Source of the DNA: an uncultured Anaerolineales bacterium | GTDB lineage: Bacteria; Chloroflexota; Anaerolineae; Anaerolineales; UBA11858 | Length of the DNA: 37,719 nt | Assembly: GCA_964544065.1 (NCBI GenBank) | Contig: CAZJBA010000004.1 | Span: forward strand, 1 to 37,719 | Direction: 5' to 3' | Shown here: positions 4,474-37,122 of the stretch, piece by piece | How the letters are laid out: every line of letters starts with the position of its first letter | Position numbering within the stretch: the stretch's first letter is position 1 | Program-made: the position numbers and the translations under genes | The notes under the pieces: model-generated | Databases searched by the model: none | Seen by the model: the letters and a program-made list of their open reading frames with translations, nothing else | Told to the model about the DNA's origin: nothing

Positions 4474-4509
4474 ATGACCATTCTCTCATCTCTGATCATC
4501 AACGGATGG

Positions 4510-4542
4510 CACGGATTTTCAATCTTGAATCCGTGTCTTTCC
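4510..4542 (+). terminator. Hairpin CACGGATT-N10-AATCCGTG followed by TCTTTCC, possible terminator or operator upstream of tex
   Basis: 8-bp perfect stem (4510-4517 / 4528-4535), read directly. The U-tract is weak. Confidence 0.35.
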
Positions 4543-4594
4543 ATGTTAGCCCCCGCTCCGAAAAAGTATCAAAAGGCAGGAAATCAAACTGATC

Positions 4595-6727: not shown

Positions 6728-6852
6728 AGTGGGAGGGGGAAATTCTTATAAAATGATAAGATTTCTCTTACGTCTTTCATATACTGATTTTTTATACTGT
6801 AAGCAAATGGATGAAGTCAAAATAGTATCCAAAATTCAAAGGAGGTTTGTAT

Positions 6853-7290: not shown

Positions 7291-7302
7291 ACGGAGGTAA
7301 CG

Positions 7303-7710: not shown

Positions 7711-7750
7711 ATTTTCGAGTTCGAACAAAACGTTGAAGGAGGCGAATTAG

Positions 7751-8266
7751 ATGGCTATCACAGATTACCTGCCTTGGAAACGCGATAAGGACGAGCTTGA
7801 AATTCGACGAGAGCCAGAAGAACAAGAATCGGTCTTGGCAATACAAGAAGAGATCGACGATCTGTTTGATGACTTTTTCAATCGTCCCTTTGGCCTGATG
7901 CGCCATCCATCAAGGGGCTTCGAAACGTTGAGCAAATTCTCGCCCAGCGTTGATGTCAGCGAAACGGCCAAACAGATCAACATCAAGGCCGAGCTTCCCG
8001 GCATGGAAGCCGACGATATCGACCTGGAAGTGCGCGACGAGATGGTCTTGATCCGAGGCGAGAAGAAGTCTGAACGAGAAGAAAAAGACGAGCAATTCTA
8101 TCGCCTTGAACGAAGTTATGGCTCTTTCCACCGCAGTATTCCGTTGCCCGCCGAGATCGACGTAGACAAAGCCAAAGCGAATTTCAAGAACGGCGTCTTG
8201 TCCATCAAGTTGCCGAAGGTGAAATCTTCGCAACCAAGGCGCAAAATCGATGTCAAATCCGGATAA
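7751..8266 (+). CDS. Hsp20/alpha-crystallin small heat-shock protein (copy 3, longer N-terminal arm)
   Basis: PSVDVSETAKQINIKAELPGM, FHRSIPLP, NGVLSIKLPK. GAAGGAGG Shine-Dalgarno upstream. Confidence 0.9.
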   Translation: MAITDYLPWKRDKDELEIRREPEEQESVLAIQEEIDDLFDDFFNRPFGLMRHPSRGFETLSKFSPSVDVSETAKQINIKAELPGMEADDIDLEVRDEMVLIRGEKKSEREEKDEQFYRLERSYGSFHRSIPLPAEIDVDKAKANFKNGVLSIKLPKVKSSQPRRKIDVKSG

Positions 8267-19157: not shown

Positions 19158-19505
19158 CTCAACCCATCATCTAGATTGGTTCAGTTTTCTCCGTTGACCC
19201 GACATTCCTGCCTATACTGTGCCAACCACGTAAGCGGTGATGTAACCTATCAGGCGTTCTCTCTTGTCGTTCTCGCGTAAAGAGGCTACTGTCTTACCTG
19301 GAGCAGCGAATGGCCCTGCTACCCAGTTCTTCTTGGCAAACACCAGCCGCGATCATGTGTAAGGACCAACACATGGGGGGTATCCGATTCGCGCCGGCAA
19401 ATCCCATCGTTGCTCCAAGAACGGATCCATGCGCTCAATCTGTGCGATTGGGCGTGCTTTCACCCATCTCCCCACCCCACTCTTTCACGGCAAATCTGGA
19501 GTAAC

Positions 19506-22500: not shown

Positions 22501-24188
22501 AAGACACGATCGCGCACATCATCGAGCAAGTCCAGGAGCAGAACTTGAATCGGGTCGTGGTGGCCTCCTGCACGCCGATCACTCATGAACCCCTGTTCCA
22601 AGACGCCATCCGCCAAGCGGGTTTGAATCCCCACCTCTTCGAGATGGCCAACATCCGCAATCAATGTTCCTGGGTCCATTCAGACGAGTGGGACACAGCC
22701 ACCCAAAAAGCCAAATCGCTGGTGCGGATGAGCATCGCCCGTTCGGCGGAACTTGAATCACTGGAAATCTCGGAAGTGGAAGTCGAGCATGCCGCCCTGA
22801 TCATCGGCGGGGGCGCGGCCGGGATGGCCGCAGCGCTCAACCTGGCCAACCAGGGCTTCCCCGTCCACTTGGTCGAACGTGAAAACGAACTCGGCGGCAA
22901 CCTGCGGAAATTGCGCTATTTTGTCGATGAAAAAATTGTGCGCAAAGGCAACGGCGAGGGGTCTAGCTCGCAAACGCCTCGCCAGTATCTCGCTGCGACG
23001 GTTGAAAAAGTCAAGCAGCACCCCTTGATCACCACCCACTTGAACACGGAACTCGTCGACACGGACGGCTTCAAGGGCAACTTCACTTCCAAGCTTGACC
23101 AACAAGGGATAATTCACCAAATCCAACATGGCGTCATCATCGTCGCGACGGGCGGTGAAGAGTACAAAGGCAGCGAATATGGTTATGGCGACCATTCCCG
23201 CATCGTGACACAGTTGGAATTCGAGACCTTGCTGGCATCGCAAGAGGCCTATCAAGACCAGGCGCCAGCATCCACGCTGGCCGACTGTGTGCCCAACAAC
23301 GTCGTCATGATCCTGTGCGTTGGCCCGGCCGAAAAATATTGCAGCCGCATCTGCTGCACCACCGCGCTCAAAAACGCGCTCAAGCTCAAGGAACTAAACC
23401 CCGACGCCGAGATCACAATTCTTTATCACGACATTCGCACCTACGGATTCAAGGAACGCGTATATACGGAGGCGCGCCGCGCCGGGGTGCGATTCATCCA
23501 CTACAAGTTTGACAAAAAACCAAAAGTTGATGTCATGCCCACGCGGCGGGATCAGTCCTCCTTGATCACCGTAGATGTGTGGGAGCCGGTTCTGAAGCGG
23601 GAGATTCGCTTGAACCCCGACCTTCTGGTTCTCTCCACGCCGGTTGTTCCCGCCGATGGAACCCGAGAACTGGCGAGTCAGCTCAAGCTGTCCACCGACA
23701 TGGACGGCTTCTTCCTGGAAGCCCATGTCAAGCTGCGCCCGGTGGACTTCTCCGCTGATGGCGTCTTCATGGCAGGGATGGCCCACTATCCCAAATTCCT
23801 GGATGAGACCATTGCCCAGGCACAGGCCGCCGCTTCGCGAGCATCCCGGGTTCTGGCCCAAGAAACGATGATGACCAACGCCCGCGTCGCCCACGTTGAC
23901 CCAGAAAAATGTGTCGGCTGCCTGACCTGTGTGCGGCTCTGCCCCTATGACGTCCCCAAAGTGACGCTAGAGCACACCGGCGTTGGCGAAATCGGTGGAG
24001 CGGCCTACATTGAGCCGGCTGTCTGCCACGGCTGTGGCTCCTGCGCTTCGGAGTGCCCGGCCCAAGCCATCCAGTTGTTGCATTACAAAGACATACAAAC
24101 GCTACGCAAAGTTGATGCTTTGTTCACTCTCCCCACAACCAAAGAAAAAGAACCGGTTCCAACAAGCACCGGCAAAGAGACCAGATAA
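19506..24188 (+). CDS. Giant HdrA-like flavoprotein with an inserted GltD/NfnB-like NAD(P)H oxidoreductase module and a second HdrA-like module (HdrL-type), copy 1
   Basis: About 1560 aa from the ATG at 19506 (GGAG upstream); the track ORF opens earlier at 19410. Motifs in order: GGGIAGMQASLDLA, DKTFPTNDCAMC, CVACGDCLEVCP, the GltD-like block CRDACPASQRAQGYI...PFPGICGRICNHRCEDACNR, IIGAGPCGL, LGGGNVAIDCARSA, VFAAGD, CLSCGICSECWSCVFEC, the HdrA signature FLQCVGSRD..YCSSVCCMYA, VFVCHCGSNIGGY, a second GGGAAGMAAALNLA, YCSRICCT, and terminal CVGCLTCVRLCP / CHGCGSCASECP. Confidence 0.88.
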   Translation: MNANHAAKTKSHTSTPVGAVMVVGGGIAGMQASLDLAEQGFKVYMVEKESAIGGKMAQLDKTFPTNDCAMCTISPKLVETGRHPNIDILTNSEVVDITGQAGNFRAQVNQQPRYVDLEKCVACGDCLEVCPVEVIDTFNEGLVDQHAIYQHYPQAVPNAFAIQKRGIAPCRDACPASQRAQGYIALIREGRWDEALRVIKMDNPFPGICGRICNHRCEDACNRGEVDEAINIRALKRFVTDKVYQNPREPVEPVEIKYPDKRVAIIGAGPCGLTTAQDIIREGYPVTVFEAMPVAGGMLRLGVPEYRLPNEIIEREVNDIIDLGVDLRLNHQVDDLDEIFQEGFESVLIAVGAHEGIRLPIPGANLDGVLINTHFLKDVRLGNYEDGNRDAPPLGERVLVLGGGNVAIDCARSAVRLGREVHLACLEGRDEMPAHEWEIQAAKEEGVHLHPGRTFERILSNHEDHVQGVECSQVASFHFDESGNLHLEKEPDSTHVLDCDTVIFSVGQRAGLAFIPDDSGVGLTDKQTIAINPNTFATSRPGVFAAGDSVSGTAFVIEAVANGHKAAQSILRYLKGQPLEPEPEPELPVVNLTQQEIDNRIERGEIEPQPRVPLPELPVDQRVTNFAEVEGGYDDESAQAEAARCLSCGICSECWSCVFECGRDAIIHTDTAKRHSLNVGAVLLAPGYQIYNAHLSREFGLGRYPNVITSLQYERMLSASGPTGGHARRPSDQKSPKRIAFLQCVGSRDQSHDYCSSVCCMYAAKEAIMTIEHARAEARDGNGDGDVQCQVFFMDTRAYSKGYEEYYHRAEEKYGVEYTRCRLSEVKEAPDSNNLIVRYAAPYEGRDEILEKEFDLVVLSVGMEISDSVKTLGQQLGVELDSYGFCHTTLFDPLQTSRPGIYAAGPFREPKDIPETVMEASGAAANAAQLLAPSRHTLAVQQEYPPEQDVSGQEARIGVFVCHCGSNIGGYLDVPNVAEYAASFPGVVHAEDNLYTCSQDTIAHIIEQVQEQNLNRVVVASCTPITHEPLFQDAIRQAGLNPHLFEMANIRNQCSWVHSDEWDTATQKAKSLVRMSIARSAELESLEISEVEVEHAALIIGGGAAGMAAALNLANQGFPVHLVERENELGGNLRKLRYFVDEKIVRKGNGEGSSSQTPRQYLAATVEKVKQHPLITTHLNTELVDTDGFKGNFTSKLDQQGIIHQIQHGVIIVATGGEEYKGSEYGYGDHSRIVTQLEFETLLASQEAYQDQAPASTLADCVPNNVVMILCVGPAEKYCSRICCTTALKNALKLKELNPDAEITILYHDIRTYGFKERVYTEARRAGVRFIHYKFDKKPKVDVMPTRRDQSSLITVDVWEPVLKREIRLNPDLLVLSTPVVPADGTRELASQLKLSTDMDGFFLEAHVKLRPVDFSADGVFMAGMAHYPKFLDETIAQAQAAASRASRVLAQETMMTNARVAHVDPEKCVGCLTCVRLCPYDVPKVTLEHTGVGEIGGAAYIEPAVCHGCGSCASECPAQAIQLLHYKDIQTLRKVDALFTLPTTKEKEPVPTSTGKETR

Positions 24189-24219
24189 CGCCACCATCAA
24201 AACAGGATATGAAAACACC

Positions 24220-24669
24220 ATGACCAAGGACTTTAGCCCCGAAATCGTCGCTTTTTGCTGCCACTATTGCGCTTATGCAGCCGCTGACCTGGCCGGATCT
24301 ATGCGCTTAGAATATCCCCCCGCCATCAAGGTAATCAAATTGCCTTGCTCCGGCAAGGTCGACCCGCTCTATATCCTGCGGGCATTCGAGGACGGCGCCG
24401 ACGGCGTTCTCACGGCCGGTTGACTGCCGGGAGACTGTCATTACCTGGAAGGTAATCTACAAGCCCGCAGAAGAGTTGAATACGCTAGAAAGCTGATCGA
24501 AGAAATCGGCCTGGATGGCCGCCGACTTCAAATGATCAATGTATCTGCAGCCATGGGAGGCCAATTCGCTTTCTCCGTTGCAGAGATGACGGCAGAGATC
24601 AAACGGATGGGGCCCAGCCCTTTCCGAAAAAATGGAAAGGAACAACTTGGAGGAGGGCAGCATGAATGA
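24220..24669 (+). CDS. mvhD: MvhD/FlpD-family [2Fe-2S] electron-transfer subunit, predicted selenoprotein (in-frame TGA at 24421-24423 read as Sec, residue 68)
   Basis: N-terminus IVAFCCHYCAYAAADLAG...LPCSGKVD...FEDGADGVLTAG-TGA-LPGDCHYLEGN. The same frame stays open for 81 more codons to the TGA at 24667-24669. The TGA replaces the first Cys of the family motif G-C-x-x-G-D-C-H-Y-x-x-G-N. Confidence 0.8.
24421..24467 (+). promoter_or_regulatory. Candidate bacterial SECIS element downstream of the mvhD1 UGA
   Basis: Hairpin ATTACC (24440-24445), loop TGGAA, GGTAAT (24451-24456), starting 19 nt after the T of TGA. A possible lower stem is CGGG (24428-24431) / CCCG (24464-24467). The same hairpin occurs at the same offset in mvhD2. 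Confidence 0.55.
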
Positions 24670-25057
24670 GCAACCTTATATCTTGATTGTGGATGATGAT
24701 CCTGACATCCTGGATGGTATTTGCACCATCTTAGAAACGCAGGATTATCGTTTAGAGACAGCGCGGGATGGGGTCCAATGCCTCGAATTGCTCGGCGAAG
24801 AGAAACCCGATCTACTAATCTTGGACCTGCTGATGCCGCGTATGGATGGCTGGGGCGTGATCCGCGAAATGCGCAGCCAAGCCTGCTTTTCCGATGTTCC
24901 TGTTATGGTGCTGACCACTGTAGTGGAAGATGCCAGCCGACGCCGCTACGAACTGGAGACAGGCATGGCCATGGATGTGCAAGAATACATCGAAAAGCCA
25001 GCCCGTCCCGATAACCTACTGCGACACGTAGAGAATCTACTGCAATGGAAAAAGTAA
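24662..25057 (+). CDS. Stand-alone CheY-like response regulator receiver protein
   Basis: YILIVDDDPD, DLLILDLLMPRMDG, YIEKP, no output domain. The ATG at 24662 follows GGAGGAGGG and overlaps the mvhD1 stop (ATGAATGA). Confidence 0.85.
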   Translation: MNEQPYILIVDDDPDILDGICTILETQDYRLETARDGVQCLELLGEEKPDLLILDLLMPRMDGWGVIREMRSQACFSDVPVMVLTTVVEDASRRRYELETGMAMDVQEYIEKPARPDNLLRHVENLLQWKK

Positions 25058-26268
25058 CTGATACGCTTTCCGTCATCGCCGACCGCCTGGGTCGATCCGA
25101 AGTGTTCAACACACTTCCGGAAGATGATCTGCTGGAAATCGCGAAACTCTGCACCGAAAAGAGCTACCCAGACGACCGAACCATCTTCCAAGAAGGCAAG
25201 CCGTCAGAAAATTTCTTAGTTGTGGAACGCGGCAAGTTGGCGATCGAAAAGAAAATCCAGATCGGCAGACACTCCACACGGCGCAATGCAACGATTGCGT
25301 ATGTCGGCCCCAACCAAGTAGCCGGTTTTTCAACCATCGCTTCTCCCCACACGCATTCCGCCTCTGTTATGACCGTTGAGCCAACCCGCGTTCTTGAAAT
25401 CAACGGTCAACAATTACGCCAGTATTTATCGTCCCATCCGAAAGCAGGATATCAGGTCTCAATCCGCCTGCTCAACCTTGTAAGTGGCCGCTACCGCAGC
25501 GCCACGAATACGCTAACCTACTTCCTCTCGATCGTCTCGCACGAATTACGCTCACCGCTAGCAGCGATTGAAAACTATCTGCGCACAATTCTGGGCGGGT
25601 TTGCTGGCGACCTGAATGCCAAGCAAGAGCGGATGATGAAACGCTGCATCCTGAGAGTCACCGATCTTTCAGCTTTGATCAGCAATGTCGTCGATTTGGC
25701 CCGCATGCGCCCGGAGCAAATCCAGGCTGACTTCGAGTGGTTTGACCCGGCGGAAGTGGGCATGGAATCAATCGATGACGCTCGCTTGGCCGCCTCGGAA
25801 AAGGGCGTCGAACTCAACATTGAGCCGCCCCCCAACTTCGAGCCCATCATTGGCGCACGGCGACGCATGCGCCAGGTTTTCACCAACCTGTTGACTAACG
25901 CGATCAAGTTCGCCCCCGAAGAATCAACCGTGACATTCCGGGCCTGGTACGAGCCAGAAGAATTAATTTTCGAAGTCGAAGACCAGGGCCCTGGCATCCC
26001 TCCCAACGAATTGCCCCACATTTTCAAGGATTTCTTTCGGGGCAGCAATGTCAAAGGGTCAGCGGGGACGGGCCTAGGCCTCTCGATTACCAAGAAAATT
26101 ATGGATGCCCATGAAGGTGACATCGTCGTCAAGAACGTCTACGATGACGAAGGCGAGATTAGCGGCACCCGCTTCACGGTTCATATTCCGCGCGATCTGA
26201 AAACCCCTGAGATGCGTAGACAAGCCTGGAGAACAGAGGGCGAAGCCGAAATGGGAGCTAACTTTTAG
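25045..26268 (+). CDS. Soluble histidine kinase with an N-terminal Crp/cNMP-binding-like sensor domain
   Basis: The N-terminal ~140 aa resemble a cyclic-nucleotide-binding beta-barrel (FQEGKPSENFLVVERGKLAI). Followed by H-box SIVSHELRSPL and an HATPase_c domain (DQGPGI, GTGLGLSI). No hydrophobic helices. Overlaps the receiver gene by 13 nt. Confidence 0.82.
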   Translation: MEKVTDTLSVIADRLGRSEVFNTLPEDDLLEIAKLCTEKSYPDDRTIFQEGKPSENFLVVERGKLAIEKKIQIGRHSTRRNATIAYVGPNQVAGFSTIASPHTHSASVMTVEPTRVLEINGQQLRQYLSSHPKAGYQVSIRLLNLVSGRYRSATNTLTYFLSIVSHELRSPLAAIENYLRTILGGFAGDLNAKQERMMKRCILRVTDLSALISNVVDLARMRPEQIQADFEWFDPAEVGMESIDDARLAASEKGVELNIEPPPNFEPIIGARRRMRQVFTNLLTNAIKFAPEESTVTFRAWYEPEELIFEVEDQGPGIPPNELPHIFKDFFRGSNVKGSAGTGLGLSITKKIMDAHEGDIVVKNVYDDEGEISGTRFTVHIPRDLKTPEMRRQAWRTEGEAEMGANF

Positions 26269-26287
26269 AAAGAAACCTTATGCAACT

Positions 26288-29200
26288 ATGAAGAGCAAAG
26301 TATCCTCCCCACGCTCCATTCATACAGACAAGTCTACTACCCCGGTTGGCGCTGCCATGGTGGTAGGGGGTGGCATCGCGGGGATGCAAGCCTCCCTAGA
26401 CCTGGCCGATCAAGGCTTCAAAGTCTATCTGGTCGAGAAACAATCCGCCATTGGCGGCAAAATGGCCCAACTCGATAAAACCTTCCCCACCAACGATTGC
26501 GCCATGTGCACGATTTCGCCAAAGTTGGTCGAAACCGGGCGCCATCCCAATATCGAGATCCTCACCAATACCGAAGTGCTGGAGGTTTCCGGAGACAAGG
26601 GCAACTTCACGGTACGACTTCGCCAAGAACCACGCTATATCGAAGTCGATCAATGTGTGGCGTGTAATGACTGTGCCGAAGTCTGCCCTGTTATCATCCC
26701 GGATCCCTTCAACGAAGCGCTCAATTCTCGCCATGCAGCCTACAAACAATACCCACAGGCCGTCCCCAATGCCTATGCTATCCAAAAGGCCGGTGTAGCC
26801 CCTTGCCGGGATGGCTGTCCCGCCGGTCAACGCGCCCAGGGCTATATCGCCCTGATTCGGGAAGGACGTTGGGAGGACGCTCTGCGCGTCATCAAAATGG
26901 ACAATCCCTTCCCGGGCATCTGCGGTCGCATCTGCAATCATCGCTGCGAGGAGGCCTGTAACCGCGCTAAGCTGGACGAACCGATCAATATTCGCGCTCT
27001 CAAGCGTTTTGTGACGGACAAGGTATACGAAAAGCCGCGCCAACCCCTCGAGCCTGTCGAGATCAACCACCCCGACAAGCGTGTGGCCATCATCGGAGCG
27101 GGCCCATGTGGGCTAACCGCGGCTCAAGACATCATTCGAAATGGTTATCCTGTTACCGTCTTTGAAGCTTTGCCTGTCGCCGGTGGGATGCTCCGTGTCG
27201 GTGTGCCCGAATATCGCCTCCCTTCTGAAATCGTAGAGCGAGAAGTTCGGGATATCGTCGACCTGGGTGTAGACTTACAACTCAATCACCGAGTAGACGA
27301 TTTTGATGAAATCTTCGACCAAGGCTATACCGCCGTGCTCATCGCCGTTGGCGCGCATGAAGGCGTTCGGCCGCCCATCCCCGGGGCCAATCAAGATGGC
27401 GTGTTGGTCAGTACAACGTTCTTGCGCGATGTCCGTATCAGCGATCCGCCAGCCTTAGGGGAGCGCGTGGTCGTCGTAGGCGCCGGCGATGTAGCCATGG
27501 ATGTGGCTCGCACCGCGGTCAGGTTGGGTTCCGAAGTTCACATCTTCTATCGGCGGCGACGAGAAGACGCGACGGCTGACGAACAAGAAATTCAACACGC
27601 CCAAGAAGAAGGCGTAGTGTTCCATTTCCAGACCAACATCAAAGAAATCATTGGTGATAGCGATGGGCTGCTCAAAGGGATAACGTGCTTCAAAACAGAA
27701 CCCGGGACTCCGGACAAATCTGGCCGCCCCAAGCCGGTTCCCGTTCCTGAATCAGAAACCTTCTTTCCCTGTGAAAATGTCATCTTTGCCGTCGGCCAAC
27801 GGGCCGGTCTCGCCTTCATACCCGACGACGCTGGTGTCGGCATCACGGACCAACAAACCATCGCCATCAACCCAAACACATTCGCAGCTACTCGTGAGGG
27901 TGTCTTCGCAGCCGGAGATAGCATCTCTGGAACTTCGTTTGTGATCGATGCTGTTGCCAGCGGCCACACCGCGGCCCAGTCCATGATCCGTTACTTGCAA
28001 GCAAAGCATCTCGAACCGCCTCGAAAACCAAACCTGCCGGTGGTTGAACTTTCGCAAAAGGAGATCGACGAAAAGTTGGCGCGAGGAGAGGTCAAACGCC
28101 AGCCGCGCGTCCCCATCCCTGAACTGGCGGCGGATCAACGCGTCAACAGCTTCGAGGAAGTCTCCCGCGGCTACGATGAAGAAAGCGCCCGTGCAGAGGC
28201 AGCCCGCTGTTTAGCTTGTGGCATCTGTTCCGAATGCATGTCCTGCGTCTTTGAGTGTGGGCGAGACGCCATTGATCACGACATGGTGGCCAAAGAGAAG
28301 GAAGTAAATGCAGGAGCCATCATCTTGGCCCCCGGTTATCAGACCTATCAGGCCGAATTATCAGAAGAATTCGGCTTCGGTCGCTATCCCAACGTGGTCA
28401 CATCAATGCAGTTTGAGCGACTGCTTTCGGCCTCAGGTCCAACCATGGGAACGATCCAACGCCCATCCGACGATGAGACTCCCCGGCGAATCGCCTTCTT
28501 ACAGTGTGTCGGCTCCCGCGACCAGGAGCATGACTATTGCTCCTCGGTTTGCTGCATGTACGCCACCAAAGAATCTGTGGTGGCCAAGGAGCATGATCCC
28601 GACCTCGACATCCACGTCTTCTTGATGGACATGCGCGCTTTTTCAAAAGGGTATTTACGTTATTTCCAGCGAGCCCAAGATGACTATGGGATTCACTATC
28701 ACCATTGTCGCATTTCCGATCTACACGAAACATCCGACGAACATGATCTAATTCTCCGGTACACGCCAGAAGAAAACCCCAACCAACTTGTTGCCCAGGA
28801 ATTTGATCTGGTCGTCCTTTCGGTGGGCATGGAAATGTCTGAATCCGTCCAGACTCTGGGCCGCCAATTGGGGGTCAGCTTGGATGAATACGGATTCTGT
28901 TCCACGCCACAATTCAACCCGGTAGAGAGCAGTCGGGCGGGCATCTACGCGGTTGGTCCGTTCCGGGAACCCAAAGATATCCCCGAAGCGGTCATGGAAG
29001 CGAGTGGTGCCTCCGGGGCTGTCGGGGCTTTGCTGGGGTCGAGCCGTCATTCTCTCACCACGATACCCGAATTCCCACCCGAGCGCGACATCAGCGAGGA
29101 AGAGCCTCGCATCGGCGTATTTGTTTGTCACTGCGGCTCAAACATCGGCGGCTATTTAGACGTTCCCAAAGTGGCCGATTATGCCGCCAGCCTGCCTCAC

Positions 29201-30853
29201 GTGGAACACGCTGAAGAGAATCTCTACACCTGTTCACAAGATAGCATCAAACACATCACGGAGACGGTCAAAGAGGAAAACCTTAATCGAGTCGTGGTCG
29301 CAAGTTGCACGCCCCTGACCCACGCGCCTCTCTTTCAGGACAGCATCAGAGCAGCAGGCTTAAACCCTTATCTGTTTGAAATGGCCAACATCCGCAATCA
29401 GTGTTCGTGGGTACACTCACACGATTGGGATACGGCCACCGAAAAAGCTCAAGAGTTAGTTCACATGGCTGTCGCCCGTTCTGCGCTGCTAAACGCACAA
29501 CCCACCATCGATGTGCCAGTCGAAAACGAAGCCCTCGTGGTCGGAGGCGGAGTCGCCGGGATGACCGCGGCGCTGACCCTGGCAGAAAACGGCTTCCCCG
29601 TCCACCTGGTCGAGAAAGAGGCGCAACTAGGGGGGCATCTCCGTGACATCCACACCTTACACGATAACCGAGATGCACAACAAGTCTTACGAAAGATGTT
29701 CGAGCAGGTAGAAAGCCAGACTGACATCCACGTCCATTTAGAGAGCACTGTGCAAGATGTAAAAGGCTTCCGAGGCAATTTCAGCAGCACAATAGAAAGC
29801 GCTGACGGACAAACCATCCAGGTCTCTCACGGAGCAACCATCTTGGCTACCGGCGCGCAAGAATACCGCGGCGAAGAATACGGTTACGGCCAATCCGACC
29901 AGATCATAACCCAGCAAGAACTTGAGGCCATCCTTGGGGGGCAGAAAGCCTACCCGACTCAAGAACCACCGGACACCGTCGTCATGATTCAGTGCATTGG
30001 GCCAGCCGAACAGTATTGCAGCCGAATTTGTTGCACCGTAGCCTTAAAGAACGCCCTGAAGCTCAAAGAACAACATCCCGACACCAAAGTCATCATTTTA
30101 TATAAAGATATGCGCGTATACGGATTTAAAGAACGTCTCTACAGCCAAGCTCGCCAAAAAGGAATTCTATTTTTACGCTATAATAAAACCAAGCCCAAGG
30201 TTGAAAGCATCCCTGCTTCAACGACCTCAACCGATAAATCCGCTTCCTTACGCATCCAAGCCTGGGACCCTTCTCTTGAAAGGACTCTTGAACTTCCAAC
30301 AGATTTACTCGTTCTTTCCATGCCGGTAGTGCCTAACCCCGACACCAAGGAGTTGGCCAACTGCTTTAAAGTTTCCACGGATGCTGATGGATTCTTCATG
30401 GAAGCCCATGTCAAGTTGCGTCCCGTCGATTTTGCCACCGAGGGCGTTTTCATGGCCGGGATGGCCCACTACCCAAAGCTGGTTGATGAAGCCATGATTC
30501 AGGCCCAGGCAGCGGCTTCTCGTGCCGCGCGGCTGCTCAGCAAGAAAACCTCAAAAGTCGGGGGGCGCGTGGCTGTGGTGGAACCAGAGCTGTGTACCGG
30601 CTGCTTAACCTGTGTGCGAGCATGCCCCTTCGACGTGCCCTTGATCAAGGCCGACTTGGTGGGCATCGGAAACATTCAAGGCGCAGCCTATATTGAAGCG
30701 GCTATCTGCCAGGGTTGTGGCTCGTGCGCGGCCGCATGTCCAGCCCAGGCCATCCAGTTGATGCACTACACCGATGCGCAAATGGCAGCAAAAGTCAGCA
30801 TCCTGGCGAAACCAAAGATACCAGCCATGAAATCAGAAGAAGTTGGAGCCTAG
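26288..30853 (+). CDS. Giant HdrA-like / GltD-NfnB-like / HdrA-like fusion flavoprotein (HdrL-type), copy 2
   Basis: 1521 aa, collinear with copy 1, all motif blocks conserved (GGGIAGMQASLDLA, CVACNDCAEVCP, PFPGICGRICNHRCEEACNR, IIGAGPCGL, CLACGICSECMSCVFEC, FLQCVGSRD..YCSSVCCMYA, VFVCHCGSNIGGY, GGGVAGMTAALTLA, YCSRICCT, CTGCLTCVRACP, CQGCGSCAAACP). Confidence 0.88.
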   Translation: MKSKVSSPRSIHTDKSTTPVGAAMVVGGGIAGMQASLDLADQGFKVYLVEKQSAIGGKMAQLDKTFPTNDCAMCTISPKLVETGRHPNIEILTNTEVLEVSGDKGNFTVRLRQEPRYIEVDQCVACNDCAEVCPVIIPDPFNEALNSRHAAYKQYPQAVPNAYAIQKAGVAPCRDGCPAGQRAQGYIALIREGRWEDALRVIKMDNPFPGICGRICNHRCEEACNRAKLDEPINIRALKRFVTDKVYEKPRQPLEPVEINHPDKRVAIIGAGPCGLTAAQDIIRNGYPVTVFEALPVAGGMLRVGVPEYRLPSEIVEREVRDIVDLGVDLQLNHRVDDFDEIFDQGYTAVLIAVGAHEGVRPPIPGANQDGVLVSTTFLRDVRISDPPALGERVVVVGAGDVAMDVARTAVRLGSEVHIFYRRRREDATADEQEIQHAQEEGVVFHFQTNIKEIIGDSDGLLKGITCFKTEPGTPDKSGRPKPVPVPESETFFPCENVIFAVGQRAGLAFIPDDAGVGITDQQTIAINPNTFAATREGVFAAGDSISGTSFVIDAVASGHTAAQSMIRYLQAKHLEPPRKPNLPVVELSQKEIDEKLARGEVKRQPRVPIPELAADQRVNSFEEVSRGYDEESARAEAARCLACGICSECMSCVFECGRDAIDHDMVAKEKEVNAGAIILAPGYQTYQAELSEEFGFGRYPNVVTSMQFERLLSASGPTMGTIQRPSDDETPRRIAFLQCVGSRDQEHDYCSSVCCMYATKESVVAKEHDPDLDIHVFLMDMRAFSKGYLRYFQRAQDDYGIHYHHCRISDLHETSDEHDLILRYTPEENPNQLVAQEFDLVVLSVGMEMSESVQTLGRQLGVSLDEYGFCSTPQFNPVESSRAGIYAVGPFREPKDIPEAVMEASGASGAVGALLGSSRHSLTTIPEFPPERDISEEEPRIGVFVCHCGSNIGGYLDVPKVADYAASLPHVEHAEENLYTCSQDSIKHITETVKEENLNRVVVASCTPLTHAPLFQDSIRAAGLNPYLFEMANIRNQCSWVHSHDWDTATEKAQELVHMAVARSALLNAQPTIDVPVENEALVVGGGVAGMTAALTLAENGFPVHLVEKEAQLGGHLRDIHTLHDNRDAQQVLRKMFEQVESQTDIHVHLESTVQDVKGFRGNFSSTIESADGQTIQVSHGATILATGAQEYRGEEYGYGQSDQIITQQELEAILGGQKAYPTQEPPDTVVMIQCIGPAEQYCSRICCTVALKNALKLKEQHPDTKVIILYKDMRVYGFKERLYSQARQKGILFLRYNKTKPKVESIPASTTSTDKSASLRIQAWDPSLERTLELPTDLLVLSMPVVPNPDTKELANCFKVSTDADGFFMEAHVKLRPVDFATEGVFMAGMAHYPKLVDEAMIQAQAAASRAARLLSKKTSKVGGRVAVVEPELCTGCLTCVRACPFDVPLIKADLVGIGNIQGAAYIEAAICQGCGSCAAACPAQAIQLMHYTDAQMAAKVSILAKPKIPAMKSEEVGA

Positions 30854-30856
30854 CGT

Positions 30857-31270
30857 ATGTCCAAGAAGAAACTCCGCATCGTCGCTTATTGTTGTGAGCA
30901 TTGCGCTTACGCCGCGGCCGATCTGGCCGGAGGCTTGCGCATGCAATACCCGCCGGAGACCAGAATTGTGCAAATACCCTGCACCGGCAGACTGGATACG
31001 CTCATGGTCTTGCAAGCGTTCGAAGATGGCGTTGACGGCGTCATGGTGGCAGGTTGACTGCCCGGAGACTGCCATTACCTGGATGGTAATGTGAAAGCGA
31101 AACAACGAGTTGAAAGGATTCAGCAATTGCTCGCTCAAATTGGTTTAGCGCCAGAGCGAGTGGAGATGTTCAATCTTTCCTCAGCGATGGCAGGTAAATT
31201 CGTCGCTGTAACAGAAGAAATGACAGAAACAATTACCCGATTGGGGCCCAACCCCCTCAAAGATTCTTGA
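30857..31270 (+). CDS. mvhD: MvhD/FlpD-family subunit, copy 2, predicted selenoprotein (in-frame TGA at 31055-31057 read as Sec, residue 67)
   Basis: IVAYCCEHCAYAAADLAG...IPCTGRLD...FEDGVDGVMVAG-TGA-LPGDCHYLDGN. The same frame continues for 70 codons to the TGA at 31268-31270. Confidence 0.8.
31055..31091 (+). promoter_or_regulatory. Candidate bacterial SECIS element downstream of the mvhD2 UGA
   Basis: Hairpin CATTACC (31073-31079), loop TGGAT, GGTAATG (31085-31091). The ATTACC arm starts 19 nt after the T of TGA, as in copy 1. Confidence 0.55.
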
Positions 31271-31294
31271 AATTTAGTAGCATCGGAGGTCACT

Positions 31295-31984
31295 ATGATC
31301 ATTGCAGAAAGAAAGGATTTAGATGAAATCAGATCACTCATCGGGGAGGATGCCGAAAAGGTGCTCGTGGTTGGATGCGGCACCTGTGTGACGGTGTGCT
31401 TTGCCGGCGGCTCGCGCGAGGCGCAAATCACAGCCAGTTCGCTGCGCATGGCAACCAAACTCGATGATGAAGAGGGCAATGGCCTGGATGTCACCGACGT
31501 GACGGTCCAGCGCCAGTGCGAATGGGAATACCTGGACGAAATCGAAGACCAGGTCGCGGAAGCCGATGTCGTGCTGTCGCTGGGGTGTGGTATCGGTGTC
31601 CAAGCCATTGCCGAATATTTTCCCGAATGCTGGGTTGTCCCCGGACTGAACACCACCTTCTTGGGGCTGCCCTCCGAGCAAGGCATCTGGGAAGAGCGTT
31701 GCGCCGCCTGTGGAGACTGTGTACTGGGGATCACCGGCGGGATTTGTCCGATCGCCCGCTGCTCCAAGTCCCTGCTCAACGGCCCTTGCGGTGGATCAGA
31801 AGACGGCCATTGTGAAATTGACCCTGAGGTCCCCTGCGCCTGGCAATTAATATACGACCGCATGAGCAGCAAAGGGCGACTTGACATGCTGATCACGTTA
31901 CAAGCGCCGAAAAACTGGAGTACGTCTCGTGATGGCGGCCCGCGCAAAATTGTGCGGGAAGACCTATTCCTAGAAGAAGCATAG
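31295..31984 (+). CDS. metV: MetV-like small subunit of methylene-THF reductase (MTHFR C-terminal-type Cys-rich domain)
   Basis: 229 aa. VVGCGTCVTVC, then CAACGDCVLGITGGICPIARCSKSLLNGPCGGSEDGHCEIDPEVPCAW. Sits directly upstream of metF, as in acetogens. GGAGG Shine-Dalgarno. Confidence 0.82.
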   Translation: MIIAERKDLDEIRSLIGEDAEKVLVVGCGTCVTVCFAGGSREAQITASSLRMATKLDDEEGNGLDVTDVTVQRQCEWEYLDEIEDQVAEADVVLSLGCGIGVQAIAEYFPECWVVPGLNTTFLGLPSEQGIWEERCAACGDCVLGITGGICPIARCSKSLLNGPCGGSEDGHCEIDPEVPCAWQLIYDRMSSKGRLDMLITLQAPKNWSTSRDGGPRKIVREDLFLEEA

Positions 31985-32003
31985 CCCCAAAGTGGAGGAA
32001 AAC

Positions 32004-33035
32004 ATGACAGCAATCGAAAACAATACCAACGGCTACCTCGTCGGTTCCAATCTGGAAAAAATGCTTGAAGCTGGACACTTTGCCGTAACCGGAGAATTAG
32101 GCCCACCTCAGAGCGCCGATGGAGAAGTCATCCGTGAAAAAGCCACCCTTCTGAAAGGGTTCGTCGATGGCATCAACATCACCGACAATCAAACCGCGAT
32201 CGTGCGGATGTCCAGCATTGGAGCAGGCACCATCGTCGTGGAGGAGGGCCTCGAACCGATCATCCAGATGACCTGCCGGGACCGCAATCGGCTGGCGATC
32301 CAAAGCGATCTATTGGGCGCTTACGCGCTCGGCATGCGCAACCTGCTTTGCCTGAGCGGCGACCATCAACATTTCGGCAACCATCCCACCTCGAAGAACG
32401 TCTTCGATATCGATTCGCTCCAAATGGTGAAGATGGTGGCCGATATGCGCGATGATTGCATCTTTCAATGCGGGGACACCTTTAAGGGCATCGAGCCGCG
32501 CTTCTTTGTCGGCGCCGCTTCCGCCCCCTTTGCTGACCCGATCGACTTTCGTCCTTATCGGTTAGCCAAAAAAGTCAAAGCCGGGGCCGATTTCATTCAG
32601 ACTCAATTGGTCTACGATGTGGAGGCTTTCGAAGAATTCATGCAGAAAGTGCGCGAACTTGGGCTTCACGAGCAAACCTACATCATGGCCGGGGTCGGCC
32701 CGCTCAAGAGCGCTGGAATGGCCCGGTACATGAAAAATAACGTCCCCGGTATCCTTGTGCCTGACGAGATCATCGAACGGATGAAAGCAGTTGACAAACC
32801 TTGGGCGGGCAAGAGCAAAGATGAAATGACCAAAGACGATAAACGCGCTCGCTCGAAAGCCCGCAAAGAGGAAGGCATTCAAGTCTGCATCGACCTAATC
32901 AATCAATTAAGAGAGATTGAAGGCGTCGCCGGTGTCCATATCATGGCGATCGAATGGGAAGAAGCAGTCAAGCCTATCGTAGAAGGCGCGGGCTTGCACC
33001 CGCGACCAACACTAAAAGAGAAAGTCGCGGCATAG
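32004..33035 (+). CDS. metF: Methylenetetrahydrofolate reductase catalytic subunit (acetogen-type MetF)
   Basis: TIM-barrel MTHFR motifs (VTGELGPP, INITDNQTA, QMTCRDRN, NLLCLSGDH, FFVGAA, ADFIQTQLVYD). The ATG at 32004 follows GGAGGA; the track GTG at 31992 lies within the Shine-Dalgarno. Confidence 0.88.
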   Translation: MTAIENNTNGYLVGSNLEKMLEAGHFAVTGELGPPQSADGEVIREKATLLKGFVDGINITDNQTAIVRMSSIGAGTIVVEEGLEPIIQMTCRDRNRLAIQSDLLGAYALGMRNLLCLSGDHQHFGNHPTSKNVFDIDSLQMVKMVADMRDDCIFQCGDTFKGIEPRFFVGAASAPFADPIDFRPYRLAKKVKAGADFIQTQLVYDVEAFEEFMQKVRELGLHEQTYIMAGVGPLKSAGMARYMKNNVPGILVPDEIIERMKAVDKPWAGKSKDEMTKDDKRARSKARKEEGIQVCIDLINQLREIEGVAGVHIMAIEWEEAVKPIVEGAGLHPRPTLKEKVAA

Positions 33036-33091
33036 CGGCACTACTTTGCTCAAACAGTCCATCACCCCACAACACAAAACTGGAGAAAGCT

Positions 33092-34522
33092 ATGGACGAA
33101 CAACAAACAAGCACGAAATCCATCAAAATCAAAGGAGACCTGGCAAAACGGGTAAAAGAAGAAATCGATCAAAATGTCTATTTGTGCTACCAGTGTGTCA
33201 AGTGCACCAGTGGATGTCCCGTGGCTGATTTCTTCGATTGGCAACCTAACCAAGTTATGCGCGCCCTTCAATTAGGGCAAGAGGATATCGCTCTGGAGGC
33301 CAAAACCCCTTGGCTATGCGCAGCTTGCCAAACCTGTACCACTCGCTGCCCGCAAGGGTTGGATATCAACGCCATCATGGAATTTCTGACCCGTGAAGCG
33401 GTCGAACAGGGCATAAAACCCCCCATCCCTGAAGTTAACGCCTTCAATCGCGCCTTCATGCGCGAGGTCAACATCTGGGGTCGTAGCTATGAACCGGGTT
33501 TGATGGCCGAGATGGGAATTCAAGATCCTCTCGCCATGGTGGAAGACCTTGACCTGTACTTCAACATGCTCAAGAAAGGCAAGGTCAGCTTCTTCCCCAA
33601 ACCGGCGCGCCTACCCAACTCTCGCAAGATCAAACCAATCGAAGGCGCCGAGGAGGCCATCGCTTACTACCCTGGCTGCTCGCTCGAATCAACCGCGACG
33701 GAATTTCATCATTCGACCGAAGCCGTTTGCGAAGCCATTGGCCTGAAATTGATTGAACCGCCCGGATGGGTTTGCTGTGGAAGTTCCGCTGCCCATAAAA
33801 TCGCTCCGGAAGCAGCTTTGCGGCTCCCGATGGAGAACCTTGCCTACTTCGAGCGCAGCGGGTTCAAGGAAGTCACCATGCCTTGCGCGGCTTGCTTCAA
33901 CCGCCACAAAGCAGCTCAATTCGAGATCCGCGAGTACGAAGACCATAAAGCTGCCATGGATGAAGCACTTGGATACGATTACCAAGACAGCGTCCACGTC
34001 AGCACATTGGCTGAGGCGATCCACAACCACATTGGGCCCGAGCGCGTGGCCGAGAAAGTCCAAAACCAGCTTGAAAACTTGAATGTGGTCAGCTATTACG
34101 GCTGTCTATTGACCCGACCTCCCGAGGTCACGGAAGCAGCCCACCACGAAAATCCCACCGACATGGACGAACTCATGGCCGCTCTGGGCGCTCAGGTTCA
34201 CGATTGGTCTTACAAGACGACCTGTTGCGGGGCTGCCCACTCCCTAACTCGACCTGACATTGTATTAGACCTGAGCGGCAACATCATCAGACACGCCAGG
34301 GAAGCTGGCGCTGATGTCATCGCCGTCGCCTGCCCGCTTTGCCACATGAATCTGGATGCCCGCCAAATCCAAATGGACCTGGAAGACCCTATGCCCATTC
34401 TCTACTTCACCCAGTTGATGGCCCTGGCATTAGGACTTCCCAAGAAAGCTGCCTTGCTACACAAGAACATCATTGATCCACGTCCACTTCTGCGAAGAAA
34501 GGAAATCATCTCTCCTGACTAA
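33092..34522 (+). CDS. HdrC-HdrB fusion protein (two [4Fe-4S] ferredoxin motifs plus two CCG domains)
   Basis: HdrC part: CYQCVKCTSGCP and CAACQTCTTRCP. HdrB part: two Cys-rich CCG repeats (YYPGC...WVCCGSS...CAAC and YYGC...TCCGAA...CPLC). The ATG at 33092 is preferred over the track start at 32954, which overlaps metF. Confidence 0.85.
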   Translation: MDEQQTSTKSIKIKGDLAKRVKEEIDQNVYLCYQCVKCTSGCPVADFFDWQPNQVMRALQLGQEDIALEAKTPWLCAACQTCTTRCPQGLDINAIMEFLTREAVEQGIKPPIPEVNAFNRAFMREVNIWGRSYEPGLMAEMGIQDPLAMVEDLDLYFNMLKKGKVSFFPKPARLPNSRKIKPIEGAEEAIAYYPGCSLESTATEFHHSTEAVCEAIGLKLIEPPGWVCCGSSAAHKIAPEAALRLPMENLAYFERSGFKEVTMPCAACFNRHKAAQFEIREYEDHKAAMDEALGYDYQDSVHVSTLAEAIHNHIGPERVAEKVQNQLENLNVVSYYGCLLTRPPEVTEAAHHENPTDMDELMAALGAQVHDWSYKTTCCGAAHSLTRPDIVLDLSGNIIRHAREAGADVIAVACPLCHMNLDARQIQMDLEDPMPILYFTQLMALALGLPKKAALLHKNIIDPRPLLRRKEIISPD

Positions 34523-34548: not shown

Positions 34549-35109
34549 ATGATGACCGCCGCTCCTCCATCTCCAGAAAAGATTGACCCTGTAACCTTTC
34601 TCGACACCACACTTGAGAAAACATGGCACGCTCTTTGCAACCACTTCGATGTCATCGCCAAAATGCCTGATAGTCAAATTCTCTTTTGTAAAGTCGATGC
34701 AAGCATGCCGCATCAAGCTGCCGAAAGAGTGTTTGTCAACATGATCACAGAATCGATTGAGCATGTAGGCCGATTCTCGCCCTGGTACACGCAACCGGCG
34801 CGTAAGTTTGGCATCATCTCAATTTGTGACGAACAAACCAATTGCCGCAAATGGATCTTAGCACCGGAGTCTCTACGTCAGTGGAAGGACGAATTAAAAA
34901 ACCTTCGTTTGGCCATTGAAAAGAATTCTGGCCTGATTCAAGCCAGCCTACTCCTGGATCAACTCAGCATGAAAGAGCTTAGCAAGGGTTCCCAAATAAC
35001 GGCCAAGTGTGAATGCTGCCCGCCAAAGCTAATTCAAATCAAAAAAGAAATTTTGGATCAATCGGCGATCACATGTGACGCCTGCCAATGCTCGTTTATC
35101 CCGATATAA
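34549..35109 (+). CDS. Hypothetical Cys-rich protein, last gene of the hdr/met operon
   Basis: 186 aa. AAGGAG lies 6 nt upstream of the ATG. I recognise no family. C-terminal cluster CECCPPK-x20-CDACQC. Visibly more AT-rich than its neighbours. Confidence 0.6.
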   Translation: MMTAAPPSPEKIDPVTFLDTTLEKTWHALCNHFDVIAKMPDSQILFCKVDASMPHQAAERVFVNMITESIEHVGRFSPWYTQPARKFGIISICDEQTNCRKWILAPESLRQWKDELKNLRLAIEKNSGLIQASLLLDQLSMKELSKGSQITAKCECCPPKLIQIKKEILDQSAITCDACQCSFIPI

Positions 35110-35556: not shown

Positions 35557-37122
35557 ATGTCGATTTTCTCACCACCAAGGTACCAAAAACCATACAAGCC
35601 CATGCGCAGGAAAGAGGAAGACAACCTTTTGATGGACATTTTCACCGCCGGTGAAAAACAACTCAAAGGGATCATGTTCAGTTGTCGTATGTGCGGCAAC
35701 TGCATCCTCCAAGAAACCGCTTTCGTTTGTCCGATGACATGCCCCAAGGGGCTTCGCAACGGGCTTTGTGGCGGAGCAACCCCTGAATCCTGCGAGGTTG
35801 ATCCTTCTCGCCCTTGCACATGGTACAAAATTTACGAACGCGCTGAAAAACTAGGCCGCTTAGACACGTTACTTGAGATCAACGCCCCCCTAGATGGCGA
35901 TCGCGTTGGTCGAGAGACCTGGATTGACTTGATTCAGACCTTCCGCGAGTATAAAGACAGCCCCAAACTCAAAGAGTTCTTCTCGAACCCGGAGAAATTC
36001 AAACAAGATTGGGACAATACCTTCCACGCGGTGCGGCAACCGGATTGGTGGCAGGGCGATAGCGACTATCATCCTCCCACCTACGAGGGCGTCAACTCTC
36101 TGCTGGAAGCCAATTTGGAAAGCGGGCAATTCACCTGCACCGCTGAAATCGCGCCCCCGCTCAGCGTATCCCCGCATGTGATCAGCAAAAAGGTTGGCTG
36201 GCTAGACGAATACGTTGCCGCCGCCAACTTCACCGACAATGCCTCCGCCTCCGCCCGCATGGGCAGCCTGGCGTCGAGCAAAATCTGCCTCGAGGCTGGT
36301 TTGGAGCCGGTGATGCAGTTACAGGCCCGTGACCGATCGCGCGTTGTGATCGAATCGGACGCCCTCGGCGCAGCCGGTCTAGGCATCAAAAACATCCTCT
36401 GCCTGACAGGCGATCACCACCGCTTTGGCCCTTCTCCAATGACAAAACCGGCTCAATTCGACCTTGACTCCATCCAAATGCTTTGGATGTTACGGCGCAT
36501 GCGCGACGAAGGTATTTACATCGACGGGCGCCCCGTCAAGAACCGACCCGAGTTCTACCTGGGTGCGGCCGCTTCCCCCTTTGGCGTTCCGCCAAAGTAC
36601 GAATCCATCCGCGTTGAGAAGAAAGTCAACGCAGGCGCGCAGTTCATCCAGACTCAGCCCGTATTCGACTACGATCGCTTCGTAGAATGGCTGGAAGCGC
36701 TTGACAAGCGGGACTTGCTTGACAAGGTTCACATCATGGCCGGGATCACGCCGATGAAGAGCGCCCGAGCGGCCCACTTCATGGCGGGCGAAGTTCCAGG
36801 CGTCTTCATTCCTGACCCCCTGGTCAAACGAATGGACGAAGCTGGCGACAAAGAAGGCCAGCAAGAAGAAGGCGTCGCCATCGCTCTCGAGGTCATCGAG
36901 AAGCTCAAAAACACGCCCGGAGTCAGCGGGCTACACATCATGGCCATTCACTGGGAGAGCGTCGTTCCCCGCCTGATGGACGAAGCCGGACTACCGAAGC
37001 CTCAAATCAAAAGTTTAGAACAAGTGGAAAAAGAGGCTGTAGCAGCCCCTAAGCAAAACCACCAAAGACAACAAGAAGTTGATATTTTTGAGGAGACACA
37101 TCGAAAAGGCCCAGGCAGATAG
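35557..37122 (+). CDS. MetV-MetF fusion: Cys-rich MTHFR_C-type domain fused N-terminally to a methylenetetrahydrofolate reductase domain
   Basis: N-terminus CRMCGNCILQETAFVCPMTCPKGLRNGLCGGATPESCEVDPSRPCTW, parallel to MetV. Then MetF motifs (CTAEIAPP, NFTDNASA, QLQARDRS, NILCLTGDH, FYLGAA, AQFIQTQPVFD). AAGGAG lies 10 nt upstream. Confidence 0.85.
   Translation: MSIFSPPRYQKPYKPMRRKEEDNLLMDIFTAGEKQLKGIMFSCRMCGNCILQETAFVCPMTCPKGLRNGLCGGATPESCEVDPSRPCTWYKIYERAEKLGRLDTLLEINAPLDGDRVGRETWIDLIQTFREYKDSPKLKEFFSNPEKFKQDWDNTFHAVRQPDWWQGDSDYHPPTYEGVNSLLEANLESGQFTCTAEIAPPLSVSPHVISKKVGWLDEYVAAANFTDNASASARMGSLASSKICLEAGLEPVMQLQARDRSRVVIESDALGAAGLGIKNILCLTGDHHRFGPSPMTKPAQFDLDSIQMLWMLRRMRDEGIYIDGRPVKNRPEFYLGAAASPFGVPPKYESIRVEKKVNAGAQFIQTQPVFDYDRFVEWLEALDKRDLLDKVHIMAGITPMKSARAAHFMAGEVPGVFIPDPLVKRMDEAGDKEGQQEEGVAIALEVIEKLKNTPGVSGLHIMAIHWESVVPRLMDEAGLPKPQIKSLEQVEKEAVAAPKQNHQRQQEVDIFEETHRKGPGR

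Follow-up and report, generated by a model that had tools for sequence, protein, structure and literature searches.

This study concerns mvhD copy 2 (30857..31270, + strand), one of two paralogous genes of the MvhD/FlpD family that carry an in-frame TGA codon in a 37,719-nucleotide stretch of DNA (hereafter the window) from an uncultured Anaerolineales bacterium (GenBank assembly GCA_964544065.1, contig CAZJBA010000004.1). Based on the analyses described here, we consider it about 93% probable that mvhD copy 2, like copy 1 (24220..24669, + strand), is an intact selenoprotein gene in which UGA has been maintained as a codon for selenocysteine (Sec). The UGA of copy 2 (31055..31057, + strand) is most likely decoded by Sec-tRNA(Sec), which would be delivered by SelB. 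SelB in turn would be recruited by an mRNA hairpin (CAUUACC-UGGAU-GGUAAUG) that appears to act as a bacterial Sec insertion sequence (SECIS) inside the coding sequence.

Translation, Pfam and comparison with relatives in the PDB described copy 2 as a complete 137-codon gene with Sec at codon 67. The frame opens with an ATG at 30857 and runs through 66 sense codons (ending ...FEDGVDGVMVAG) to the TGA, which stands in the context GGU-UGA-C; 70 further sense codons (LPGDCHYLDGNVKAK...NPLKDS) then lead to a terminal TGA at 31268-31270. The residues around Sec read GVMVAG-U-LPGDCHYLDGNVK. An initial annotation, made from the nucleotide sequence, had proposed that copy 2 carries its TGA at the codon homologous to that of copy 1, followed by 70 codons and a stop at 31268-31270, and the translation agreed with this exactly. 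Copy 1 comprises 149 codons with Sec at codon 68 (24421..24423, + strand) and has the motif AG-TGA-LPGDCHYLEGN, of which AG-U-LPGDCHY is common to both copies. The two had also been described as diverged paralogues, as was borne out by their amino acid identity of ~52% (56% upstream and 49% downstream of the TGA). When U was replaced by C, both proteins covered the Pfam profile PF02662 from position 1 to 123 of 123, at an E value of about 1e-49 in each case (4.7e-49 and 165.9 bits, cut-off 22.3, for copy 2).

A PDB sequence search aligned copy 2 with MvhD/VhuD chains from six complexes of solved structure, at E values of 1e-40 to 4e-33; its relatives include 7bkb_F, 9sfi_K and 5odc_D. Five Cys positions are common to all solved MvhD/VhuD chains, and alignments to 7bkb_F, 9sfi_K and 8rvu_F showed all of them to be present in copy 2 as C13, C16, C42, U67 and C72 (copy 2 numbering). 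By homology, the product is an MvhD/FlpD-type electron-transfer protein that would bind a [2Fe-2S] cluster. The depositors' sequence of VhuD from M. maripaludis (9sfi_K, cryo-EM) has X, for Sec, at two places, one of which is the column occupied by the TGA of copy 2 (VFVAG-X-KPNEC vs VMVAG-[TGA]-LPGDC). The same column holds Cys in the Cys-type chains 7bkb_F and 8rvu_F, and in all 16 of the close full-length homologues inspected.

The TGA codons are not an artefact of sequencing or assembly, since an independent Logan assembly (SRR7048227, L201) that was 99.92% identical to the window over 10,496 nt (window 21285-31780) carried both of them, together with both of the hairpins downstream. This near-identical strain differed from the window at 8 positions, 6 of them synonymous and 2 nonsynonymous, one of the latter being Gly100Ser in mvhD copy 1, downstream of the TGA.

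In species-representative genomes, a scan identified 80 related loci, nearly all from metagenome-assembled genomes (MAGs) of Anaerolineae and other Chloroflexota. The best was 75% identical, and the window's own species is therefore not among them. TGA was found at the homologous codon in 69 loci of other genomes, which is not explained by chance or error, and 11 related genes in the 80 loci use TGC or TGT there (Cys-type genes). In the resulting set of 70 complete Sec-type genes, which includes both window copies, the frame remained open after the TGA in every case, for 68-94 sense codons, compared with 71-94 in Cys-type genes; no frame-disrupting change followed the TGA in any of the 70, although indels of this kind in relatives had been named beforehand as evidence against recoding. 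Genes resembling copy 1 were rarer among the relatives, being found only in L038 (83%) and L076 (70%); L038 has both mvhD paralogues, each with a TGA.

The initial annotation had also suggested comparing the ratio of nonsynonymous to synonymous substitution rates (dN/dS) on the two sides of the TGA. For the paralogue pair, the Nei-Gojobori (NG86) dN/dS was 0.26 over the 66 codons that precede the TGA and 0.27 over the 70 that follow it. Purifying selection downstream therefore equals that upstream, and indicates that the downstream segment is translated and constrained. Because the Jukes-Cantor dS was saturated in most orthologue pairs, dN/dS is given for the paralogue pair only, and the orthologues were compared by the proportions of nonsynonymous and synonymous differences (pN/pS). 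Averaged over all pairs of the 70 orthologues, pN/pS was 0.26 upstream of the TGA and 0.39 downstream of the SECIS zone, values that, with pS near saturation, are if anything overestimates.

Folding of the mRNA revealed an apical hairpin beginning 15 nt past each UGA. The hairpin of copy 2 (31073..31091, + strand) consists of a 5' arm CAUUACC (31073-31079), a loop UGGAU (31080-31084) with G at loop position 2 and a 3' arm GGUAAUG (31085-31091), giving 7 bp and a UGA-loop spacing of 22 nt, and it encodes H-Y-L-D-G-N-(V). That of copy 1 (24440..24456, + strand; AUUACCU-GGA-AGGUAAU) likewise has 7 bp, with a loop GGA and a spacing of 23 nt, and sits on a lower stem spanning 24424-24470. The minimum free energy (MFE) was -7.3 kcal/mol for the hairpin alone and -9.8 for the whole element in copy 2, and -4.5 and -16.4 kcal/mol, respectively, in copy 1 (UGA to +57). 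The published bacterial SECIS (bSECIS) model requires an apical loop of 3-9 nt, a stem of 4-16 bp, a UGA-loop distance of 16-37 nt, MFE <= -7.5 kcal/mol and, within the first two nucleotides of the loop, a G (pattern N1-G-[G|U]-N-N2; PMC13188914 Fig. 2A). Both window hairpins agree with this model in loop, stem, loop G and spacing. Like the bSECISearch consensus and its prototype, E. coli fdhF, they are stem-loops within the open reading frame (ORF) immediately 3' of the UGA, with loops of 3-5 nt matching N1-G-G-N-N2; the difference is that the window stem is AU-rich and weak alone, and that its sequence is unrelated to that of fdhF.

As the hairpin encodes the conserved residues H-Y-L-(D/E)-G-N, synonymous sites were used to separate conservation of the RNA from that of the protein. 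In the 70 Sec-type genes the codons over the hairpin were CAT (70/70), TAC (70/70), CTG (69/69), GGT (70/70) and AAT (70/70), and all five were fixed in 69 of the 70 orthologues, compared with 0.77 genes expected (joint probability 0.011) from the codon usage of the same genes outside the hairpin zone. The invariant residues flanking the hairpin vary in their codons (Gly+3: GGC 40, GGT 19, GGA 10; Asn+13: AAC 39, AAT 10), Ala+14 uses four codons and nearby Arg codons also vary freely. Consistent with this, pS was 0.28 in codons +1 to +11 vs 0.74-0.80 elsewhere.

Sec-type and Cys-type genes were further contrasted, over unique sequences, after a metagenome scan with a pattern that lacked the hairpin. 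The six inner pairs were all canonical in 105 of 109 Sec-type sequences vs 4 of 39 Cys-type sequences, and the local MFE was -7.06 and -4.38 kcal/mol, respectively (Mann-Whitney p = 3.9e-13), in a region whose GC content is lower in the Sec-type (0.40) than in the Cys-type (0.58). It is the local hairpin only that separates the two types, as the MFE of the 48 nt after the codon did not (p = 0.16). RNAalifold recovered the hairpin from the Sec-type set and detected no covariation because the stem is invariant; for this reason we rely on the synonymous-site statistics and on the contrast between Sec-type and Cys-type genes. The extreme sequence conservation of the hairpin is probably explained by its arms encoding invariant residues.

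Two further observations bear on what is conserved. In L168 (around 1334), a Tyr to Phe change (UAC to UUC) is accompanied by a synonymous GGU to GGA change that turns an A-U pair into U-A. In addition, a second Sec lineage (SG-U-HPGDCHYxSGN; metagenomic loci L085, L106, L147 and L148) has a different hairpin of 7-8 bp at the same offset, UGCCACUA-NNN-UAGUGGCA in three of the four genes, which is not formed in the Cys-type homologues of that lineage (L070 and L075, from Desulfobacterales/Desulfobacteraceae MAGs). Based on this compensatory change and on a different hairpin at the same site, comparative sequence evidence indicates that structure rather than sequence is what is selected. An Rfam scan of the window at gathering thresholds gave no match, which is uninformative on SECIS elements; we know of no general bacterial SECIS model in Rfam.

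Several points weigh against reading the UGA as a Sec codon. The MFE limit of -7.5 kcal/mol is reached only by the whole element and in neither copy by the apical hairpin alone, which is short and AU-rich. Support from covariation is thin, amounting to the one compensatory case and the alternative hairpin of the second lineage. Finally, no tRNA-Sec, selA, selB or selD was found in the 37.7-kb window, in which ARAGORN predicted no tRNA at all, or in the Chloroflexota flanks.

The last point also favors the best surviving alternative, namely that the UGA is read through without selenium. The ribosome would be slowed by the hairpin, and a suppressor or a near-cognate tRNA for Cys or Trp would supply one of the standard amino acids, giving a full-length product that is not a selenoprotein. 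Termination at UGA-C is leaky, and read-through of this kind would equally explain the clearly translated downstream frame. However, the site is the established Sec site of VhuD, the hairpin has SelB-type SECIS geometry with G-G in the loop, and the Cys-type relatives use TGC or TGT and lose the hairpin, the classic pattern of Sec/Cys exchange. Anaerolineales also encode SelB (PMC4959059), and we consider selenium-free read-through improbable. The Sec machinery of this organism is assumed from literature at the level of its lineage: single-cell genomes of Anaerolineales encode Sec-specific elongation factors and Sec-containing formate dehydrogenases, A. thermophila encodes SelB (PMC4959059), and BSepDB lists Dehalococcoidia MAGs with 46-49 selenoprotein genes (PMC13326102). 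A search of 200 loci for tRNA-Sec gave one match (L075 4706-4796; ARAGORN, anticodon TCA), in a Desulfobacteraceae MAG outside the window's lineage. It lies directly after a Cys-type mvhD (4256-4669), so that either selC adjoins the hdr/mvhD cluster there or the prediction is false.

The TGA could instead be a real stop, leaving a pseudogene or a gene split into a 66-aa N-terminal polypeptide and a separately initiated C-terminal one. The Logan gene calls for L201 do give only 67-aa and 66-aa FlpD fragments, both mvhD genes being split at the TGA, and copy 2 has an in-frame GTG 12 codons past it. Yet no part of the protein is better conserved than the 11 codons that separate the TGA from this GTG (LPGDCHYLDGN), and these are in frame in 70/70 orthologues. 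In copy 1, none of the 30 codons after the TGA is an in-frame ATG, GTG or TTG. A stop at the TGA would also remove or detach positions 67 and 72, which belong to the five conserved Cys positions. As for a pseudogene, the same "mutation" would have to recur in about 70 genomes and two paralogues, and dN/dS between the paralogues is equal on both sides of it. The conserved frame and LPGDCHYLxGN motif, the missing restart in copy 1 and the recurrence in about 70 genomes exclude both versions, to which we attach almost no probability. The earlier proposal of maintained recoding, rather than a nonsense mutation or pseudogene, is upheld by the kept frame, the purifying selection, the SECIS-type hairpin and the known Sec column.

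It is similarly very unlikely that the hairpin is unrelated to UGA decoding and owes its conservation to constraint on the residues CHYLEGN, to a local bias in codon use or to a different function of the RNA. Both arms do encode highly conserved residues, and the stem is near-invariant rather than covarying. Amino acid constraint, however, cannot fix synonymous third positions, and where Cys-type homologues have these residues (H-Y/F, G and N), CAC, GGC/GGA and AAC are in free use (CAT 9/CAC 4, GGC 6/GGA 3/GGT 2, AAT 7/AAC 5); the joint codon expectation of 0.011 and the second Sec lineage, which builds another hairpin at the same offset, also stand against it. The very few Cys-type genes that bear the hairpin include L029 2574 (TGT), in which the arms are exact, and L001 971 (TGC), in which there is one G-U pair (CTG to TTG). 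These look like recent Sec-to-Cys conversions with a decaying relic of the element, and such relics are expected if the hairpin serves Sec insertion.

In favor of a genome-wide reassignment of UGA to sense (Trp or Gly, genetic codes 4 and 25), it might be said that TGA is the rarest terminator of the 30 genes delimited in the window (TAA 19, TAG 7, TGA 4). This reading is excluded as very improbable, since the aligned homologue column holds Cys, not Trp or Gly, and since TGA is the terminator of 41/70 orthologues and of four window genes, the two mvhD genes among them. TGA is internal in only 2/30 delimited genes, the two mvhD genes, and no other internal stop codon occurs in any of the 30. 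UGA still works as a stop for ordinary genes. To our knowledge, no reassignment of UGA has been reported for Chloroflexota, the lineage of the window.

The genes of the window lie almost all on the + strand, and mvhD copy 2 belongs to a cluster of two HdrL-mvhD modules followed by genes for a methylene-tetrahydrofolate (THF) reductase. HdrL2 (26288..30853, + strand), whose stop is 3 nt ahead of the mvhD copy 2 start, is a fusion protein of 1521 aa in which Pfam recognises a ferredoxin-like part, a GltD/NAD(P)H-binding part and an HdrA-like flavoprotein part; it had NCBIfam matches of the HdrA/HdrA2/GltD type and matched HdrA structures (5odc_A etc.) at E 1.5e-94. HdrL1 (19410..24188, + strand; 1592 aa) has ferredoxin-like, GltD-like NAD(P)H-binding and HdrA-like domains and is 64% identical to HdrL2. 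We presume that HdrL2 is the partner of MvhD copy 2 and HdrL1 that of MvhD copy 1. Between the two modules are a response regulator gene (24632..25057), whose start overlaps the last 38 nt of mvhD copy 1, and a gene for a cyclic nucleotide monophosphate-binding histidine kinase (25045..26268). A pair of this kind stands upstream of HdrL in about 20 related loci, and this recurrence suggests that the operon is under dedicated regulation.

Directly downstream of mvhD copy 2 are metV (31295..31984, + strand; DUF5981 in Pfam) and metF (31992..33035, + strand; MTHFR in Pfam), which encode methylene-THF reductase subunits. These are followed by a gene for a fused HdrC/HdrB-like protein (32954..34522, + strand), assigned from Pfam, NCBIfam and synteny, with a 4Fe-4S dicluster and two CCG domains; its true start is probably downstream of 32954, as relatives align from about residue 45. 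The next ORF (34549..35109) encodes 186 aa without a Pfam or NCBIfam match. It is kept in the same position, at 30-43% identity, in about 25 related loci, and based on this conservation is probably an uncharacterised operon member. Further along, one gene (35557..37122) codes for a second methylene-THF reductase in which MetV and MetF are fused (DUF5981 at residues 28-112, MTHFR at 184-477) and which is ~40% identical to the separate MetV and MetF. The order HdrL-MvhD-MetV-MetF-HdrBC is kept in about 75 related loci, often with the 186-aa ORF and often with the regulator pair upstream. No hydrogenase large or small subunit gene was present among the window genes. Elsewhere in the window, two tandem response-regulator/HD-domain (HD_5) genes (118-2122) and a row of three HSP20 genes with a DnaJ-like gene behind them (6847-8266) appear unrelated to the finding.

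The adjacency of genes for an HdrA-like flavoprotein, MvhD, MetV, MetF and HdrB/HdrC-like proteins fits a methylene-THF reductase cluster of the HdrA(BC)-MvhD-MetVF type. From this context, HdrL-MvhD-MetV-MetF-HdrBC, the operon may encode an NAD(P)H-linked, probably flavin-based electron-bifurcating methylene-THF reductase of the Wood-Ljungdahl pathway in Anaerolineae-type Chloroflexota. The 137-residue product of mvhD copy 2 would contribute a [2Fe-2S] cluster that passes single electrons to the flavin of the adjacent HdrL2, as the cluster of MvhD/VhuD hands single electrons to the bifurcating flavin adenine dinucleotide (FAD) of HdrA (PMC6019823, PMC13518236). Similar clusters have been described (PMC5736913): Moorella thermoacetica has an HdrCBA-MvhD-MetVF methylene-THF reductase, and marine Anaerolineae have hdrABC-mvhD-metVF clusters. 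These share with the window an HdrA-like flavoprotein, MvhD, MetV, MetF, HdrB/C-like subunits and a two-component system inside the cluster, and the marine Chloroflexi also have a fused HdrBC. The window differs in having, in place of HdrA, an HdrL of ~1,500 residues with a built-in NAD(P)H-binding module, and in having Sec in MvhD; the MvhD proteins of that study were not described as selenoproteins, and the SM23_63 homologue (P0066) is Cys-type.

A 2026 review lists MvhD/VhuD (PF02662) among the selenoprotein families, its members having one or two Sec residues at most (PMC13188914). In Methanococcus (M. voltae, M. jannaschii and M. maripaludis; 9sfi chain K), VhuD contains Sec and is the delta subunit of the F420-non-reducing [NiFeSe] hydrogenase. 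Copy 2 resembles VhuD in its PF02662 domain (128 aligned residues, E 2.4e-37), in having Sec at the same column and, as predicted from homology, in serving as a [2Fe-2S] adaptor that feeds an HdrA flavin (PMC13518236, PMC6019823). Unlike copy 2, in which the N-terminal CxxU site is occupied by Cys16, VhuD carries another Sec there; the archaeal SECIS lies in untranslated regions (PMC13188914) whereas the window hairpin is inside the ORF; and VhuD docks a hydrogenase or formate dehydrogenase. Copy 2 scored 162 bits against the NCBIfam VhuD model NF045873, under the curated cut-off of 215, and is therefore not a VhuD equivalog. Judged by these comparisons, the window MvhD would work like VhuD yet is not a hydrogenase delta subunit.

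Among bacteria, Desulfobacterium autotrophicum HRM2, in which HdrL was first described, was reported in 2009 to have four Sec-type mvhD genes (MvhD1/2/3/5) adjoining hdrA/hdrL (PMC2702500). It resembles the window in that Sec-MvhD paralogues directly follow a gene for HdrA or for the large HdrL (an HdrA/glutamate-synthase fusion), and it has several Sec and Cys MvhD paralogues per genome. It differs in belonging to the Desulfobacterota and in that two of its HdrL proteins are selenoproteins, whereas neither HdrL1 nor HdrL2 of the window has an in-frame TGA. The metagenomic genes of the SG-U-HPGDCHY type share the Sec site of the window genes and differ in their hairpin. BamF, the MvhD-like subunit of the class II benzoyl-CoA reductase of Geobacter metallireducens (bioRxiv 10.64898/2026.04.10.717634), is likewise a bacterial Sec-MvhD homologue, in which electrons pass from a [2Fe-2S] cluster in the direction of a bifurcating FAD of the HdrA type. 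It is more than 100 residues longer and has Sec at the N-terminal site, where the window protein has Cys, its Sec being at the second site.

BamF is also informative as to the role of Sec in the window proteins. The literature searched contained no statement on which MvhD cysteines ligate the [2Fe-2S] cluster, and Sec19 of BamF has been described as a non-ligand cysteine position near the cluster (bioRxiv 10.64898/2026.04.10.717634). Read from its residue number, Sec19 is the N-terminal CxxC/U site, which is Cys16 in copy 2. This leaves four of the five conserved Cys positions, and by elimination residue 67 is probably one of the four ligands. HdrA has a "DCSIC" Cys pair next to its bifurcating FAD (Cys194/Cys197 in 5odc_A, with Sec197 in the HdrA of M. 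maripaludis). HdrL2 lacks this pair (29300-30853), having ...HDNRDAQQV... there, and HdrL1 (about 22890-23100) has an unrelated insertion in its place, so that no thiol/selenol relay put forward for HdrA can work in the same way here. A tentative and on balance doubtful suggestion is that the Sec of the AG-U motif binds the [2Fe-2S] cluster directly, as a selenolate ligand, and so tunes the potential of the cluster, and that it was selected because the HdrL partners lost the Cys/Sec pair on the FAD side. If this speculation were true, it would represent a natural selenium-ligated iron-sulfur relay in a class of bacteria that is widespread but uncultured and that is distinct from the sulfate reducers and methanogens so far credited with Sec-MvhD.

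Many Anaerolineae relatives also have a third, Cys-type MvhD subfamily (VVACPIGNCHHVRGN; L002 877-1260, L004 811-1194, L005 717-1100 and some 20 other loci). Its gene comes after an additional HdrA-like gene and precedes the Sec-type mvhD by about 5 kb, so that a single genome contains both Sec and Cys paralogues of MvhD. This subfamily is absent from the window.

That Sec occurs at this MvhD site by means of a bacterial SECIS is already known, the family being a textbook selenoprotein family. What is modestly new is the prevalence of the Sec form in the HdrL-MvhD-MetVF-HdrBC operons of Anaerolineae and the systematic mis-annotation of these genes. Sec-containing hydrogenase subunits, including MvhD/VhuD, have been described as confined to sulfate reducers and methanogens (PMC13188914), and the roughly 70 Chloroflexota genomes found here extend the described distribution of Sec-MvhD. 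Most of the sampled relatives of the operon use Sec, although the full-length MvhD homologues in the protein database for this clade are all Cys-type, because gene callers stop at the TGA. The importance of the finding lies mainly in annotation, as reconstructions of subsurface and sediment Anaerolineae would miss both an intact subunit of the methylene-THF reductase and a requirement for selenium.

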